Assembly: GCA_051294375.1 (NCBI GenBank) | Contig: CM119268.1 | Coordinates: forward strand, 18,742,615 to 18,806,614 | DNA length: 64,000 nt | Direction of reading: 5' to 3' | From: Paraspadella gotoi | Lineage: Eukaryota; Animalia; Chaetognatha | In this document: positions 1 to 63,372 of the stretch, in pieces | Layout: each line of letters starts with the position of its first letter | Numbering within the stretch: the first letter of the stretch is position 1 | Notes under the pieces: model-generated | What the model was told of the DNA's origin: nothing | Databases searched by the model: none | Seen by the model: only the letters and a program-made list of their open reading frames with translations | Position numbers and translations under genes: made by a program

Positions 1-667
1 TCATGATCATATATATGAACATATTATTATTTTCTAACTTGTTATTCCATACTTTTGGACATATTAAAACAGTATTGTGTACTATCTGTACTAACGTTTC
101 GAGAATTTTCGAAAGAGGTCGAGCCGAAAAGGAAGGCGGACGGATGGGCGCTCAAGCGAGGGAACAGAAAGAACAGGCGCTTGATGGGGAACCATCGAGT
201 CTTCTCTCCCTCACGAGGAACGGAAGCTTAATTTGGAAGGGAATCTGGCGATTAGCGTCACAGACGAAATCAATTGCGATCGATCGACGCGGGTTAATCC
301 GGATTGCAGATGGAAACGGAGTTCGGGAGGCAAGAGACTGAGATTGGAGAAAAGAGGCCCGAGAGTTTGATTGGGTAAATTGGTTAATGTTGTGATTGGA
401 GAAAATAGAGTCTGATTGGAGAAAGAGAATACAAGATCCTCATATCTCATACTTGTGGAGATAAGCTGTGATTGGAAAAAAGAAAAGAATTAAAAAAGAC
501 AATCCTATTGGAAAAAAAGAAAAACGTGTGGAAAATTATAGAGCTTGTTTATTAAATAGGTAATCTTAATATGGTTGTACTGATTGTTGAATGATTATAG
601 AAAAATGGATATTTTATAGCAACGGGAGGATAGCCTGTGATACCCGGGGCGCGGGGTATCTCACCAA

Positions 668-747
668 CTGGCGTAGGGGCTGCGGACCCTCAGTGACCGC
701 CTCCTGTCACTGGCATTTTTATACCGGCACCGTCACATTTAAGCCAG
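668..747 (-). ncRNA. Twister ribozyme, P5-type permutation (copy A1)
   Basis: Minus strand reads P5 CUGGC-uuaa-P2' AUGU-GA-T1 CGG-P1 ugccggua-U^AA-P2 AAAU-GC-P3 CAGUGAC/GUCACUG-P4 AGGG-L4 U CCG CA GC-CCCU-ac-P5' GCCAG. Predicted cleavage 721/720. One P2 mismatch, and L4 has CA where AA is usual. Confidence 0.8.
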
Positions 748-762
748 AAGCGGGATACCCAG

Positions 763-815
763 GGATTGAACCCGGGACGCACGGATGGAATGAGATGATT
801 TAGCCTGCTCAGCCA
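763..815 (-). promoter_or_regulatory. Putative Pol III type-2 internal promoter (A box + B box)
   Basis: Minus strand TGGCTGAGCAGG (815-804) fits TRGCNNARYNGG. GGTTCAATCC (772-763) fits a B box inside a T-arm-like hairpin, 31 nt away. Both motifs are conserved in the copy at 62867-62920. Confidence 0.45.
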
Positions 816-2959
816 TTGAGACGAGGCTGAGGACGGACAGCAGTGAGGCAGCTTTAAGTCTTGCTGCCACAATTTACGGTATTAGGAAAAAGGGAATGAG
901 TTGAAAAAAATAACTTCTTCTAATTTAAAGTGTTTGATTTGAAAATGAATAGAATTTCAGAGGAAAAAATTAAAGGAGACTGAGCAACCAAACCCATGGT
1001 ATAAAGAATGGAACTCGAGATTCCATTCTCGATAAAGTTTTCATAAAGAACCTNNNNNNNNNNNNNNNNNNNNNNNNNNNNNNNNNNNNNNNNNNNNNNN
1101 NNNNNNNNNNNNNNNNNNNNNNNNNNNNNNNNNNNNNNNNNNNNNNNNNNNNNNNNNNNNNNNNNNNNNNNNNNNNNNNNNNNNNNNNNNNNNNNNNNNN
1201 NNNNNNNNNNNNNNNNNNNNNNNNNNNNNNNNNNNNNNNNNNNNNNNNNNNNNNNNNNNNNNNNNNNNNNNNNNNNNNNNNNNNNNNNNNNNNNNNNNNN
1301 NNNNNNNNNNNNNNNNNNNNNNNNNNNNNNNNNNNNNNNNNNNNNNNNNNNNNNNNNNNNNNNNNNNNNNNNNNNNNNNNNNNNNNNNNNNNNNNNNNNN
1401 NNNNNNNNNNNNNNNNNNNNNNNNNNNNNNNNNNNNNNNNNNNNNNNNNNNNNNNNNNNNNNNNNNNNNNNNNNNNNNNNNNNNNNNNNNNNNNNNNNNN
1501 NNNNNNNNNNNNNNNNNNNNNNNNNNNNNNNNNNNNNNNNNNNNNNNNNNNNNNNNNNNNNNNNNNNNNNNNNNNNNNNNNNNNNNNNNNNNNNNNNNNN
1601 NNNNNNNNNNNNNNNNNNNNNNNTCTGAAATTGCAAACGTGTTTCTGTTTTGCTTGTTTTCGTTAAAAAGTAATTTATGTATAATATTTAATAGTTTATA
1701 TACAATAAGTAGTACTGATTGTATATAAAAGTGCATTCATGCATATTTTTTTTATCTCCCCACCATCCCACAAAGCCAAAGGTCATGTCAATATCGAAGT
1801 AGTACAATCGTTACTACTTCTTTTCGCTTTGGGTCGCAAAAGAGTTTTATCGGATTCAATGTTTGTGCCGAATCGGAATCCAGTTGTTGTTGTTGTTGTC
1901 GTCGTTGTTTGCGCCGTTCGAACAGCCTTCCAGGCGATTCTGTTTTCTAAGCGAAAAAAAGTTTGTGCCGACCTGTTTGAGACAAACANNNNNNNNNNNN
2001 NNNNNNNNNNNNNNNNNNNNNNNNNNNNNNNNNNNNNNNNNNNNNNNNNNNNNNNNNNNNNNNNNNNNNNNNNNNNNNNNNNNNNNNNNNNNNNNNNNNN
2101 NNNNNNNNNNNNNNNNNNNNNNNNNNNNNNNNNNNNNNNNNNNNNNNNNNNNNNNNNNNNNNNNNNNNNNNNNNNNNNNNNNNNNNNNNNNNNNNNNNNN
2201 NNNNNNNNNNNNNNNNNNNNNNNNNNNNNNNNNNNNNNNNNNNNNNNNNNNNNNNNNNNNNNNNNNNNNNNTTTTCTCTCTTTTTCTCTGTATTTTCTCA
2301 TTTCCTTCTGTCTTTTTGGGACAAAAAAGTCGATTTTTCGTCCAAAGTGTTTCATCTCAGTCGGTGTTACACTTTCTTTATTTTCTTCACTTTTTTGTTT
2401 TTCTTCATTTCTGTCAGTTTTTCTTTCTTTTTTTTTTTTGCGTCCTTCGCACTTACTCTTCCACGCGTTCTTCTTTCTTATCTCTCCTTTTCTTTCTTCA
2501 CACGACTTTCCTTCGTTTCGTCCTTGACGATTTAAACTTACCTCGACTTAGAAGATTACGTAGTTTAATGTTTTTTCTTATCTTCAACACCTTACCATTT
2601 TTTATGACAAGCTGTATCAGCATTTTATTTCCATTCGACCTTTTCTTCTGCCTTCCTTCCATTTTTCACTTTGATGTTCTTTTACAAATTTACTCTCNNN
2701 NNNNNNNNNNNNNNNNNNNNNNNNNNNNNNNNNNNNNNNNNNNNNNNNNNNNNNNNNNNNNNNNNNNNNNNNNNNNNNNNNNNNNNNNNNNNNNNNNNNN
2801 NNNNNNNNNNNNNNNNNNNNNNNNNNNNTCTCTCTCTCTTTCTCTCTCTCTCTTTCTCTCACTATCGCCCAGTCTCTGTCTCTGTCTCTCTCTTTCTCTC
2901 CCACTTTCACCCTCTGCTGCTCGCTCAGTCTCCGAGCGCAACTTCCTCTGAAAATAAAT

Positions 2960-6961: not shown

Positions 6962-7414
6962 ATCCATTGATTTTTTTCGGGCTACGCGCAAAAGCTTTGC
7001 CCGTGACACATTGACTAGCATCTGAACTGCAAAGTCAATTGGAGAGAGCCAAAGGATGTAAGAGAGAGATAGAGAGAGAAAGTGAGTGAGAGAGAGAAAG
7101 AGAGAGAGATAGAGAGCACATTTGAAGACTGTGTGCGCTAATAAAAAGATATTTCTTAAACATTTTTAAAAGAAAATTATTTAAAAAAAAAAAGAGGCTT
7201 AGAAAAGAATAAGCTAAAATACATCGGTAATTACATGGACGATCACGTGACTACATAACTATGTAATATATGTATAACAAATGTTCTATGGTTTAATCAC
7301 TTATATGCAAAGTTTTAACCAAAACAACCAAATATTATACAAAATCACAATATCTACAAAATATACTATGGCAACAGCCGGGTTGCCTGTGATGCCCATT
7401 GGGATGGGGCAGAT

Positions 7415-7498
7415 GTTAGCTTTTGGGGGCTTCCGACCCTTAGTGACGCGCTCCAGTAACTGGCGCGGTTACCCTAGGACGGTCTCCGCTTTGCCAAC
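7415..7498 (-). ncRNA. Twister ribozyme, P5-type permutation (copy B1)
   Basis: Minus strand reads GUUGGC-aaa-GCGG-a-GA-CCG-UCC ua GGG-U^AA-CCGC-GC-P3 CAGUUAC/GUCACUA-AGGG-U CGG AA GC-CCC-caaaa-GCUAAC. Canonical L4 with T1 CGG/CCG. Predicted cleavage 7471/7470. One extra A before GA. Confidence 0.8.
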
Positions 7499-7891
7499 GC
7501 AGAGGGAAGTCGTTAGGACTTGGATGAACACTACGCTTGGGATGTGTGTTCCCCTCTGAGCCAATGGATTTGGCTGAAGGACGGTGGATGTGAGGCAGTG
7601 TGAATATACCACCACAGGATCCCCGGGCCAAGACATCACTCAGGTTCCTCAAGCCAGAGAGGTGTCTTGACAAGACTGTTACCATAGTGGGAGAGAGAGG
7701 AGAGCGCGAGTTGGGGGGGATAGGCGTTTGTTGTAGCGACTACCCAAGGGGTATAGGCGTTTGTCTTATACGCAGATACCGAAGTCGGAGCATAGTCGTC
7801 GTAGCGTACCCTGAGAGGTGCGTGTTTGATAGTAGCACCACTTATGGCAACAGCCGGGTTGCCTGTGATGCCCATTGGGATGGGGCACTCA

Positions 7892-7962
7892 GTTGGCTGG
7901 GCTTCCGACCCTCAGTGACGCTCCAGTCACGGAGCCACAAGGACGGTTCTCGCTTTTCCAAC
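7892..7962 (-). ncRNA. Degenerate twister ribozyme (copy B2)
   Basis: Retains P5, P3, L4 (U CGG AA GC) and the T1 partner CCG, but the UAA cleavage motif and P2 strand are missing as assembled. Confidence 0.5.
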
Positions 7963-8319
7963 GCAGAGGGAAGTCGTTAGGACTGGTAATGGACAACCGG
8001 AGGTGCGCCTGAGCCATGGATTGGAAGGCCAAGGAGGAGCATAGTGGAAACCGCCACAATACCATATTTATTTTATGATTATGCGACTGTATTTTTATTT
8101 TGTCATGTGATAAAGGAAGTATGATACATAAGCACAAGAAGCATTTACTTATTAACTTAACTTATTAGTCTCCAAAATGTCTAAGTCTTTCATGTATTAG
8201 GCAAATCATCATATGATCGCTTTTTGATTATGTGAATGTACAAGTATGATACATATGCATATGAAAGATCTTTTGGTACGTCACCCTCCTACCGAATGAT
8301 AACTTCATTGATGCTGTAT

Positions 8320-15972: not shown

Positions 15973-16005
15973 AAAGCCAANNNNNNNNNNNNNNNNNNNN
16001 NNNNN

Positions 16006-18885: not shown

Positions 18886-19078
18886 ATGTCAGCTCTGCCT
18901 CGCGTTTATTTCGACGTCTCCATCGGCGAGTACGACGCCGGACGCATCACCATGGAGCTTCGGCCGGACGTGGTGCCGAAAACGGCCGAGAATTTCCGGC
19001 TTCTCTGCACGGGAGAGAAGGGGGTCGGATACAAAGGCAGCGCCTTCCACCGCATCATCCCTCGGTTTATGATTCAGG
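18886..19078 (+). CDS. PPIA: Cyclophilin A-type peptidyl-prolyl cis-trans isomerase, exon 1 of 3
   Basis: [64 protein letters not shown](G); phase-1 donor G|GTGAGT at 19079. Symbol denotes the family (PPIA-like), orthology not established. Confidence 0.93.
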
Positions 19079-19788
19079 GTGAGTTAGGGTGAGGAACTCG
19101 GGATGGTGGAAAGTAAAGTGAAAAGTAAGATTTTAGTCTTTCTGTTTATTTATTTATTTTTAGATTAAATTATAGCAAATGAATAAAAGATATCAAAATT
19201 TCTTTTTTCTCAAATATTTCAAAAATACTAAAACCTATACTGTATTTAACTTTGAGCGTAAAATTTTAGTTTTTTTCTACTATTTTGACCTTCTTTTTTT
19301 AATTTTCGAATAATAATTTTCCTTTAACTACGTACTTCGTTGTTATTTATTTGTTTTTCATATGTTTTCGATTAAAAAGTAAAATGAGAATTTCATATTT
19401 CTCTCTCTTTCACTGGTTCTACGGTTCTCAGTGGTAATCCCTCTGTTCTTTTGTTTTTGTTTTTTTTTGTTTTGTGTTTTTTATTCTCGCTCCACAATGA
19501 CTCTGTTTTCTTGCTTCGTCAGCGAATAATTTAATTTGATAATGAAAATATTGTTTCTGTGGCCTTCTCCCCTTAACAAATTCGAGACTGAACAAATTAG
19601 GTAATAATTCAGTGACGAAACAGTTTTAATAATTGACGAGACAACAGACAACAGAGTAAGTCCATGCTTACGTGACTTACTCTCGTTAATCACTTACCCG
19701 CGAACGTCGTCTATCTTCCCAGCCAATTTTACTTTCTCGCTATTAGCCATTAGTTCTTTCTTTTTTTTACTTTCTTTCTTTCTTAATT

Positions 19789-19868
<80 letters not shown>

Positions 19869-20558
19869 TTTACATCGGAAGTCGTTCTACGACGCTTTTA
19901 GTTCTCTTTTGCTTCCTTGTTGACTTTATTGTTATTGTCCTTTTTTTTCTCTCGTTGTCATTTTCGCCGCTATTAATACTCGCGCTCGGGTGATTGAAAG
20001 AGACTTAAGCTTCGGCTCTAAGTATGTATGGACAGAGAAGCGTCGATGTTACGACAAGTTTTTTTTTTTTTTTTCGAGGTTTAAGTAAATACAACATTTG
20101 TCTCACAGTATAATTTTCTCTCAGATGTGCAAATTGTATGTAAAGACATTGAATTATCATTATCTTTTAAACTAAAGCTCGGACTTCGTTATTATGAAAG
20201 AGTTTCTAAACCTTTCCAAAAACTTCTCTCCCAGTTGCTCTTCATCAACGCCCTTATCTCCTGTCCTCTCCTCTCTATCTCCTCCTCTTCTCTCTTCTCT
20301 ATTTCCTCCTCTTCTCTCCTCTCTATTTCCTCTCCTCCTCTTCTCTCCTCTCCTCTCCTTTCTATCTCCTCTTTTCTCTCTACTTCCCTCTACTTGTATC
20401 GACACTCCTCTCCCACTACGTCATTAAAATATAATCCTCTCTATCAACGCTACCTATCTTTCAACAACACTTCCTCTCTATTAAACGACTTTACCTCTCT
20501 ATCAACCACACTTCCTCTTTATTCTTTCCTAAAGCCTCCTCCTCCCTCTCTTTTCCAG

Positions 20559-20749
20559 GCGGGGACTTCACCCGAGGCGACGGCACGGGGGGTCAGAGCA
20601 TCTACGGTCAGCCCTTCGACGACGAAAACTTTCACCTGCAACACTCTGGACCCGGTGTGCTGTCGATGGCGAACGCGGGGCCCAACACGAACAAGAGCCA
20701 ATTCTTTATCTGCACGACGAAGACAGAATGGCTGGACAGGAAGCATGTG
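20559..20749 (+). CDS. PPIA: Cyclophilin A-type PPIase, exon 2 of 3
   Basis: Polypyrimidine tract plus CAG acceptor; [64 protein letters not shown]; donor GTGAGG at 20750. Confidence 0.93.
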
Positions 20750-21402
20750 GTGAGGCGGGGAGGGGGGGGGAAGCTACTACTATGTTGATTGGTGGTCATA
20801 AGGAAAGCTAGCGCTATATTATATATTATATTATATTATATTATATTATATTATTATTATATTATATTATTTATATTATTATATTATATTATATTATATT
20901 ATATTATATTATTATATTATGATAGGACATGGAAAAATTTGTCAAGGAACTTTTTTTAACTCTTTATGTGCGACTATTATTTTTAGTCATAACTATATCG
21001 TTCTTTTTATACCACACGAAGATTACAAAATTTTCACTTGTAAAGATTTCGACAAGTAAGACTAAAAAAAATATTGTATTAAATCTTTATAAACAAAACA
21101 TAAATTTCTACTCCAGAAACTGTACCAAGTGTATCATGTAAATAATAGAAGACGTTTTTAATTTGAGATTACTACGATTTTTTATTTCAATTTTAGACGT
21201 ACATGTTTCGGCTTTAACAATGTCTAACATGTAAATAATATTTAAAGTTCCTTGCTTTTAAAACCAATTTACATTTTTTCCTCACCACAATTTTTCCTAA
21301 CTAAAATGAGTTTTATCTTCGGCCACACCTGCAACCATTTATCTGCCGCTCCTTCATGTCTGCTCCTCTATTTTCTCTCCACTCCACTTCCTCTCCGCTC
21401 AG

Positions 21403-21516
21403 GTCTTCGGGCGCGTTATCGACGGGATGGACGTGGTGTCGCTGGTGGAGGCGCTTGGTAGCAGGAGCGGAAAACCCGCAGCGCGAGCCTTTATCCGGGC
21501 CTGCGGACAGTTGTAG
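21403..21516 (+). CDS. PPIA: Cyclophilin A-type PPIase, exon 3 of 3
   Basis: CAG acceptor; VFGRVIDGMDVVSLVEALGSRSGKPAARAFIRACGQL-stop. Spliced CDS is 193+191+114 = 498 nt, giving 165 aa in frame. Confidence 0.93.
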   Translation, partial: VFGRVIDGMDVVSLVEALGSRSGKPAARAFIRACGQL

Positions 21517-62729: not shown

Positions 62730-62978
62730 GGAGGGTAGCCTGTGATACCCGGGGCGCGGGGTATCTCACTAACTGGCGTAGGGGCTGCGGACCCTCAGTG
62801 ACCGCCTCCTGTCACTGGCATGTTTATACCGGCACCGTCACATTTAAGCCAGAACGGGATTACCCAGGATTGAACCCGGGACGCACGATGGAATGAAGAT
62901 GATTTTAGCCTGCTCAGCCATTGAGACAAGGCGGAGGACGGACAGCAGTGAGGCACTTTAAGTCTTGCGTGCCACAAT
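62730..62978 (-). mobile_element. Twister-ribozyme-bearing structured repeat, subfamily A copy 2
   Basis: Near-identical to 625-873 in unrelated flanking sequence, with the same CCACAAT boundary. Confidence 0.75.
62773..62852 (-). ncRNA. Twister ribozyme, P5-type permutation (copy A2)
   Basis: As copy A1 but with fully paired P2 (AUGU/ACAU). Predicted cleavage 62826/62825. Confidence 0.83.
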
Positions 62979-63228
62979 ATTCTTTTTATCAACTTTTTAT
63001 GACGGATCCAAATCTGCAAAAAACTCTTAGAAAAAACTGTTTTGAAATTTTAACATTTATTGGATTAGTACTAGTATAAATATGGCCTACTGCGTAAATT
63101 GTAAAATTTATTATAAATTTTTTTTATACATTAGTATAATGTTGTTCGTTCCTCACTTTTAGAATTTTAATTAAAGTTAAATTTAGAAATTTTACTACGC
63201 CTTATTATCCACCCCACCCCACCTCAAG

Positions 63229-63372
63229 GTCTTCATCTCCGTCCTCCTTGCCTGCGCCGTCCTCATCGTGCTGCTCGGCATCTGCGGCTGCTGCGGGGTC
63301 GGCGCTGAATCATTTTGCCTCATAAAAACCTACATCCTCTTCATGATGCTCATCGTTTTGGCCGAAATCACG
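63229..63372 (+). CDS. Tetraspanin family protein, internal exon (TM2-TM3)
   Basis: AG|...|GTGAGC, 144 nt, phase 0-0; VFISVLLACAVLIVLLGICGCCGVGAESFCLIKTYILFMMLIVLAEIT carries the tetraspanin GxxGCCG..ES.CL..Y.........E pattern. Other exons were not identified. Confidence 0.85.

Follow-up and report, generated by a model that had tools for sequence, protein, structure and literature searches.

A short gene-less LTR retroelement of the chaetognath Paraspadella gotoi with tRNA-type promoter boxes and a predicted P5-type twister ribozyme in its long terminal repeats

A stretch of 64,000 nt of the Paraspadella gotoi genome (assembly GCA_051294375.1, contig CM119268.1, positions 18,742,615 to 18,806,614; hereafter the window) contains a dispersed repeat of about 250 nt which, judging from its sequence, is almost certainly the long terminal repeat (LTR) of a short retroelement without genes, of the kind known as TRIMs (miniature retrotransposons that have terminal repeats). 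The repeat occurs as a solo LTR and as both ends of one full-length element, with target-site duplications (TSDs), a primer-binding site (PBS), tRNA-type A and B boxes and the anatomy of a twister ribozyme of the P5-permuted type, and public sequencing runs place it in many different flanks. The twister in the LTRs is very probably active. The reading that we favour, with moderate confidence, is that this Helenus-type TRIM is at the same time an LTR retrozyme, in which a tRNA-type promoter would drive an RNA that a twister cuts in each LTR, the resulting unit-length RNA being circularised and then copied by a Ty3/Gypsy element of the CsRn1 clade.

Structure of the element and its copies in the window

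Exactly four copies of the family were identified in the window with nhmmer, to which BLAST adds none, and they are LTRs at three insertion sites, belonging to subfamily A (c1 and c2) and subfamily B (c3 and c4; Table 1). Read on the minus strand, every complete copy starts with TGTGG and ends with GTTGC(C/T)ATA. A 4-bp TSD is present at two of the three loci, the third (c2) being truncated; with LTR ends fixed by the shared termini, we estimate the chance of each TSD at about 0.007 for the composition of the flanks. ATTT stands on both sides of 615-871, and ATAC on both sides of 7367-8058 when the latter is taken as one unit; the pair of copies at 7.4-8.1 kb therefore constitutes one element, and c1 is a solo LTR. 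Identity amounts to 95% over 253 nt between c2 and c1 (BLAST) and to 61% (163/266 columns) between c1 and c3, which represent the two subfamilies. None of the frames of at least 55 aa in the 692-bp element has a Pfam match, and no reverse transcriptase (RT) or integrase family was detected among the 126 window frames scanned. The assembly contains large fold-backs and many indels, and defects of single copies may therefore be errors. The possibility that c1 and c2 are an assembly duplicate was discarded because their flanks differ. A short interspersed element is ruled out by the TG...TA ends, the 4-bp TSD, the PBS and the lack of a tail, and so is a Penelope pseudo-LTR or a tandem non-LTR retrozyme.

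A preliminary description, made from the letters alone, had placed a repeat of about 250 nt at 617..873; the repeat stands and its ends shift to 615-871. The recurrence that it reported 62.1 kb away in different flanks corresponds to c2. Its four copies, including a divergent subfamily at 7.4-8.1 kb, are all recovered, the divergent two being the LTRs of one element and not independent copies. It had also suggested a mobile RNA family, probably of high copy number and possibly undescribed: high copy number and mobility hold and no description was found in print, while a free repeat like Sm-alpha or the animal non-LTR retrozymes has given way to the LTR of a TRIM-type element, whose TSD, PBS and tRNA-type boxes that description had not noticed.

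Table 1. Coordinates of the element, its copies and their predicted functional parts in the window
Feature	Position	Strand	Details
c1, solo LTR, subfamily A	615..871	minus	257 bp; ends TGTGG...GCTATA
c1 TSD ATTT, 4 bp	left 611..614, right 872..875	.	from terminus comparison
c2, subfamily A LTR lacking last ~10 nt	62730..62976	minus	ATAT beyond 5' end; perfect P2; predicted cut 62826/62825
Full-length subfamily B element, LTR-internal-LTR	7367..8058	minus	692 bp; no protein family
Subfamily B element TSD ATAC, 4 bp	left 7363..7366, right 8059..8062	.	
c3, 3' LTR of 692-bp element	7367..7616	minus	250 bp; twister 7498-7415; L4 UCGGAAGC; predicted cut 7471/7470
Internal region of 692-bp element	7617..7842	minus	226 bp, non-coding
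c4, 5' LTR of 692-bp element	7843..8058	minus	216 bp; mis-assembled or damaged; GA, T1, P4 and L4 present, U^AA absent
P5-permuted twister fold, c1	668..747	minus	predicted cut U721/A720; one P2 mismatch
c1 twister, P5	747-743/672-668	minus	
c1 twister, P2'	738-735	minus	
c1 twister, GA	734-733	minus	
c1 twister, T1	732-730/685-683	minus	
c1 twister, P1 segment	722..729 (729-722)	minus	8 nt, self-complementary; hairpin of 2 bp, or duplex of 8 bp if two ribozymes pair
c1 twister, cut site	U721^A720	minus	
c1 twister, P2	718-715	minus	
c1 twister, T2 GC	714-713/680-679	minus	
c1 twister, P3	712-706/697-691	minus	7 bp
c1 twister, P4	690-687/678-675	minus	
c1 twister, L4	686-679	minus	8 nt
c1, 3' structured end	635..665	minus	665-661 pairs 846-842; 7-bp hairpin 660-654/645-639; 640-635 can pair with LTR 5' end
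c3, P1 segment	7479-7472	minus	also self-complementary
tRNA-type A-box motif, c1	804..815	minus	A+B pattern
tRNA T-arm with B-box, c1	759..775	minus	5-bp stem, loop TTCAATC
PBS, tRNA-Trp type	7826..7840	minus	2 nt after 5' LTR; starts with TGG; window letters degenerate, TGGTGCTAC; X13 contig TGGTGAGCCC
Polypurine-tract-like end	7617..7629	minus	GGGGA run just before 3' LTR; weak

Copies and flanks in public sequencing runs

Contigs from public sequencing runs were aligned to the window. Of 15 runs listed, 13, from 7 studies and mostly from one organism, contain the stretch; none is recorded as RNA, X9 and X10 being conjectured to be so, and run X1 is possibly related to the source of the window itself. 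In X1, 1,630 contigs aligned on 540-950 and 3,909 on 7300-8120, the latter region receiving 4,452 in X3. Summed contig depth, which is not a copy number, reached 4.7e5-8.8e5 on the LTR versus 242 on the flank in X1; where the LTR ends, depth falls by a factor of over 1,000. For c1, both depth and loose contig ends stop at 614/615 and 871-873 (runs X1 and X9), with 21+12+7 loose ends at 614-619 and 26+18+18 at 871-873, and at 7842 there are 81 loose ends in X1 and 80 in X3. At 614/615, 871-873, 7842 and 7616 the contigs run out into AT-rich flanks that differ from one another, and this low agreement points to many different insertion sites; the junction consensus is ATAT-like in most rows of loose ends. 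The family has many copies. Subfamily A contigs of X1 that break at 871 continue with the consensus GGATC, which is the junction on the polypurine tract (PPT) side of the full subfamily B element, and hence A LTRs have an internal region as well. One 506-nt contig from another study (X13, a biofilm metagenome) runs through PBS, internal region, PPT, LTR and PBS, giving a unit of about 488 nt. In the window, contig depth drops about 100- to 1,000-fold at 7700-7830, in the half of the internal region on the PBS side, which is thus variable among copies or mis-assembled here.

These observations bear on a further explanation, namely that the subfamily A LTRs belong to an autonomous CsRn1-like Gypsy element that codes for proteins and itself carries the twister, with subfamily B as its small derivative. 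The A copies in the window are only solo or truncated, their internal region being unseen, and both the ends and the PPT-side junction are Gypsy-like, as this explanation would have it. Subfamily A nevertheless shares its tRNA boxes and that same junction with the 692-bp non-coding B element, the scanned window frames hold no RT or integrase family, and Kojima argues that a Pol III promoter restricts how long an element can be and is improbable in an autonomous partner (PMC10886601). We consider the explanation quite unlikely.

Two pattern searches were extended to other sequence collections. Matches to the 21-nt core pattern (0 viral, 2 metagenome and 3 in prokaryote genomes) were dismissed as chance, as none of the five extends beyond the pattern or has the remaining fold. 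The single viral contig (L003) matching the LTR-end plus PBS pattern was dismissed likewise, the match lying inside a long unrelated reading frame. That open frame, of 463 aa, occupies positions 1-1389 of this small contig on the minus strand and by eye looks like an RNA-virus polymerase.

A P5-permuted twister in the LTRs

With the sequence already in view, we wrote a descriptor of the P5-permuted twister that follows the consensus published in PMC8501958 (Table 1). Across both strands of the 64 kb it matches three times, at U721, U62826 and U7471, all within copies of the family; dinucleotide shuffles of the three copies gave 10, 14 and 12 matches per 20,000, and shuffled windows gave 0.2 matches each (30 shuffles). 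The U^AA followed by a 4-bp P2 and the T2 GC is perfect in c2 and c3, has one P2 mismatch in c1 and is absent from c4, leaving the twister intact in three of the four LTRs; the broken one is that of the 5' LTR in the full-length element. The 8-nt L4 loop (U, T1 strand, NA, GC) reads UCCGCAGC in subfamily A and UCGGAAGC in subfamily B. All four copies present the GA and the 3-bp pseudoknot pairing T1, with a compensatory swap, and in c1 and c3 an open P5 of 5-6 bp, through which the strand ends leave while P1 is closed by a loop, includes a compensatory pair. Despite the 61% identity of c1 and c3, the GA, the U^AA, both T2 GC, P4 and the U and A of L4 are kept; P2 (ACAU/AUGU to CCGC/GCGG), the middle T1 pair, one P5 pair and P1 have changed on both sides. 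The P2 defect of c1 (position 717) is not shared by 99.5% of the X1 contig depth, nor are the P3 defects of c3 (7441 and 7458) shared by 97.5-99% of contig depth.

The substitutions in T1 and L4 have counterparts in the mutant matrix of the Osa-1-4 twister (PMC5113685; matrix columns counted by us), where C27G/G47C scores 0.86, C26G/G48C 0.74 and A28C 1.00, the remaining displayed values of the C27G and C26G rows not exceeding about 0.2. The T1 swaps seen in the two subfamilies equal C27G/G47C and C26G/G48C, and the CA in L4 equals A28C. Among the positions at which twisters tolerate no substitution, G13, G30 and A46 are kept, and G48 is kept in A, whereas in B it and its partner have changed places. 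The G-U pairs point to the minus strand: the LTR termini of c1 and c3 pair at 9/9 positions on that strand and at 6/9 and 4/9 on the plus strand, and the terminal closing helix of the full element comprises 7 bp.

The preliminary description had found all twister elements on the minus strand in P5-permuted order, and the element positions and descriptor matches bear this out. Its concern over CA instead of AA in L4 falls away with the full activity of A28C (1.00) in Osa-1-4 (PMC5113685). Its P1 of 2-3 bp would be 2 bp, unstable by itself, within an 8-nt palindrome able to form an 8-bp duplex. For the UUGUGG/UCACAG closing helix the preference of the G-U pairs for the minus strand was upheld, the first U belonging to flanking DNA; and the case for the larger multi-helix RNA is the conservation of its helices, the LTR as a whole not being unusually stable.

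Rfam scans returned no match for the c1 region, only microsatellite-driven miRNA matches for the whole window and only two chance matches for 7350-8080 (c3 and c4). A P1-type twister, suggested by cmscan, was rejected as no T1 follows that GA. A plus-strand hammerhead was rejected too: CUGANGA is present and no GAAA partner could be seen by eye, and the Rfam window scans show no hammerhead match.

An improbable alternative is that the TRIM is an ordinary one and its twister fold a relic, dead or non-catalytic, such as a captured ribozyme that now acts as a packaging structure. A weak Rfam score, a P1 of only 2 bp and the broken c4 would all be expected of a relic. It would not be expected to retain the catalytic G, the cut-site AA and all four substitution-intolerant positions through 39% divergence, or to have acquired T1 double swaps that in Osa-1-4 are active only as pairs (PMC5113685), and P1 is dispensable in other twisters (PMC8501958).

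Promoter boxes and priming signals

The combined A+B box pattern matches c1 and c2 only, on either strand of the window, with the boxes directly upstream of the ribozyme. ARAGORN reports 0 tRNA genes in the window, so the boxes are not part of an intact tRNA. The minus strand of c1, c2 and the full element contains no TTTT. These features make transcription of the element by RNA polymerase III (Pol III) fairly probable. Compared with a tRNA-Trp PBS, the X13 contig agrees at 11 of the first 13 letters, and the window copy has a 4-nt gap. On the plus strand, 7790-7842 beyond the PBS and an X13 loose end behind 7816 carry T-arm-like letters resembling a further part of a tRNA 3' half. The resemblance is to the 3' half of tRNA-Trp, as if copying of the primer tRNA had gone beyond its usual extent; ARAGORN and Rfam find nothing there.

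A model of replication and its alternatives

In the reading proposed here, Pol III would start in the 5' LTR, close to its A box, read through both twisters and meet no T4 terminator on the minus strand. Cleavage of both twisters at U^A would yield an RNA of about 476-488 nt (476 nt in the window), composed of one LTR and the internal region and bearing 5'-OH and cyclic-phosphate ends. The usual strand transfer depends on a terminal repeat, and such a unit RNA would have none, a difficulty that circularisation would solve; an RtcB-type ligase is the candidate for closing the circle, as RtcB circularises the hammerhead retrozyme monomers of animals (PMC7229834), and a circularisation route has been modelled for plant retrozymes (PMC4918200). 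Reverse transcription primed by tRNA-Trp around the circle would rebuild two LTRs, the integrase of a partner element would insert the product at ATAT-like sites, and LTR-LTR recombination or short cDNAs would leave solo LTRs such as 615-871. The CsRn1 clade of Ty3/Gypsy has ends TGT...ATA or AAA, a PBS of the form TGGTGA(G/C)CCCG and 4-bp TSDs (PMC2582038), and since the TGT...ATA ends, the PBS and the TSDs of the present element match these, RT and integrase probably come from a CsRn1-clade element. These RNA-level steps are inferred, and the route through a circle seems to us only slightly favoured.

Another possibility, which we rate as rather unlikely, is that the twister of this Helenus-type TRIM merely makes RNA ends, replacing the T-run terminator of Pol III or trimming read-through transcripts, and that a linear RNA cut once and still bearing a terminal repeat is copied without any circle. 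Most of the published Helenus LTRs inspected have, by eye, a T run soon after the B box (PMC10886601), where the twister sits in P. gotoi; a transcript starting at the 5' A box would, if cut in the 3' LTR only, keep a repeat of about 95 nt; and the 5' twister of the full copy is broken. However, LTRs are made identical in each round, so a fast ribozyme would cut the 5' LTR as well, and both subfamilies keep helices in which the 3' end of the LTR pairs with letters lying upstream of the A box, a pairing that needs the whole LTR in one RNA, as it would be in a circle.

The P1 segment may offer one further element of the retrozyme model. It is self-complementary in both subfamilies with different letters (UGCCGGUA and UCCUAGGG); on its own it folds into 2 bp with a 4-nt loop, not a stable hairpin, and as a duplex it reaches about -11 kcal/mol (-10.9 for c1). 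Amphibian hammerheads cleave as dimers (PMC7229834), and a dimeric twister joined through the palindromic P1 may exist here, an idea conceived after the fact from two sequences. The fullest version of the proposal is that this is the first animal LTR retrozyme and the first built on a twister, a Pol III-driven parasite of Gypsy in which the ribozyme replaces the poly-T terminator and the palindromic P1 pairs the twisters of both LTRs, so that efficient cutting would happen only with both LTRs in one transcript and would release unit-length RNA for circularisation; taken as a whole, this version is speculative and on balance doubtful.

Several observations weigh against the retrozyme reading or parts of it. 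A significant Rfam covariance-model match, foreseen as a check in the preliminary description, was not obtained: c1 gave nothing, and when 131 nt of c2 were compared with 4,227 families, the top one was twister-P1 at 18.4 bits and E 0.09, the gathering value being 67.2. Formal covariation over four rows identified three pairs changed on both sides, a result as high as which occurred in 115 of 500 shuffles, the covariation score for the same rows being equalled in 7 of 500. Whole-LTR minimum free energies are not unusually low (z -1.0 to -1.5), and the unit-length circle folds only modestly better than its shuffles (z -2.1). The P2' of subfamily B carries an additional A in c3 and, in roughly half of the X1 depth, is one base short, with no partner change visible among the rows displayed. 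The LTRs of the 692-bp element are 73% identical (185/254), and its 5' twister, in the sole full-length copy, lacks the U^AA, so that as assembled it would cut once. Contig depth is zero at 8000-8027 and at most 62 at 8028-8055 within c4 (four runs); the damage to this copy may reflect an assembly error or decay. Subfamily B has the A box with a T-arm and B box off consensus, so that neither c3 nor c4 matches the A+B pattern in its strict form; the absence of TTTT alone is weak evidence; and the PPT candidate, at a conserved junction, is a weak run of 5 purines only. An autonomous partner was not found among the window frames, and CsRn1-like elements are reported to show no target preference (PMC2582038), in contrast to the ATAT-like bias seen here.

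Comparison with known systems

Plant LTR retrozymes carry a type III hammerhead, a tRNA-Met PBS, LTRs of 300-400 bp and a unit of about 700 nt (Cervera et al. 2016, PMC4918200). The P. gotoi element resembles them in being non-coding and shorter than 1.5 kb, in its PBS and candidate PPT, 4-bp TSD and solo LTRs, in its presumed dependence on Ty3/Gypsy and in the predicted ribozyme within its LTRs, and departs from them in having a twister, a tRNA-Trp-type PBS, tRNA A and B boxes, a 250-bp LTR and a unit of about 480 nt. The Helenus TRIMs/TRIMp3 have tRNA boxes in their LTRs and, in animals, 4-bp TSDs, and are Gypsy-mobilised, Pol III transcription being unproven for Helenus itself (Kojima 2024, PMC10886601). 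Like them, the element is smaller than 1 kb and has two LTRs with tRNA-derived A and B boxes, a PBS, 4-bp TSDs and solo LTRs, and one wasp Helenus family uses tRNA-Trp (PMC10886601 supplement); unlike them, it has its boxes in the middle of the LTR, followed by about 100 nt of ribozyme and no T run, and ends in TGT...ATA. The accessible text of that paper contains no 'twister', and 'ribozyme' in one reference only; an exact-motif search of the accessible Helenus consensus file, blind to variants and line wraps, yielded no twister core. As a separate observation, several wasp Helenus internal regions in the supplement share, by eye, a conserved hairpin just before the PPT.

With type P5 twisters (Rfam clan CL00120) the fold shares U^AA, a 4-bp P2, the GC/GC of T2, P3, P4, an 8-nt L4, the GA with a 3-bp T1 and an open P5, and it differs from the consensus in a T1 of CGG or CCG for GGG, in a P1 reduced to an 8-nt palindrome and in scores that do not reach the Rfam thresholds; of the annotated twisters, only 1% have a P5 (PMC6154101, PMC8501958, PMC5113685). 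Twister variants are carried in animal genomes by the Perere-3 and RTE non-LTR elements of Schistosoma (PMC8501958, PMC7761336), likewise retroelements using a twister, whose motifs, unlike ours, are single 5'-end features of autonomous LINEs in which the TSD adjoins the cut, whereas here they lie inside LTRs and the element is non-coding. The non-LTR retrozymes of animals and Sm-alpha are also small, non-coding, ribozyme-bearing repeats, some of which need dimeric ribozymes (PMC7229834, PMC7761336, bioRxiv 10.64898/2026.07.22.740005), and contrast with the present family in their type I hammerheads, tandem arrays, link to Penelope-like elements and lack of LTR, PBS and PPT. CsRn1-type elements, reported from trematodes and insects (PMC2582038), share the TGT...ATA ends, PBS type and 4-bp TSD and encode Gag-Pol, whereas the P. 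gotoi element encodes nothing; signals of this type favour an animal as host. No twister in an LTR element was found in the accessible literature, including PMC6765202, PMC13725137, PMC12859917 and PMC13570524, with subscription papers, Repbase, the lists of Roth et al. 2014, bioRxiv supplements and most of the Helenus supplement outside the search, and the accessible text of a 2024 review (PMC11722881) has no 'twister'; the family could be listed in Repbase or similar sets without its ribozyme having been noticed. On sequence grounds the combination of tRNA promoter, twister and Gypsy priming signals appears to be new, each component being of a kind already known.

Other features of the window

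Large mirror-image duplications occupy 10.8-20.8 kb (centred near an N gap at 15981-16005) and 43431-44706/45909-47184; many of their arms are 89-100% complementary, one 1,276-nt pair being 100% so, and they are possibly amplification chimeras or real fold-backs. A spliced cyclophilin gene (18886-19080+, 20558-20752+, about 21400-21513+; mirror piece 10815-11075-, partly duplicated by the fold-back) reaches 88% with one metagenome protein and about 71% with the named ones, whether from animals, algae or Euglena; its tree gives no clear placement, and the atlas clusters consulted are mixed. Its spliced exons, like the tetraspanin exon, are those of a eukaryote. The tetraspanin exon (63190-63372+; PF00335, E 2.6e-7) lies about 210 nt from c2, and a sequence search found no homologue of it at E 0.001. 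The window further contains 39/48-nt C-rich minisatellites at 47.7-48.3 kb and 53.9-54.2 kb, a 31-nt minisatellite at 27.9-29.4 kb and an apparent segmental duplication of about 6 kb (49.5-52 kb and 55.5-58 kb).

Significance

According to reviews, animal retrozymes lack LTR, PBS and PPT and carry hammerheads, LTR retrozymes being mainly a plant feature (PMC4918200, PMC7229834, PMC7761336). If the retrozyme reading is true, the design of being cut out, circularised and copied by a borrowed Gypsy RT would have arisen again with another ribozyme, and the rare P5 twister would gain a biological job that can be tested. The element would also bear on how Pol III-driven TRIMs make an RNA fit for reverse transcription, and would indicate that genomic twisters of high copy number escape Rfam.

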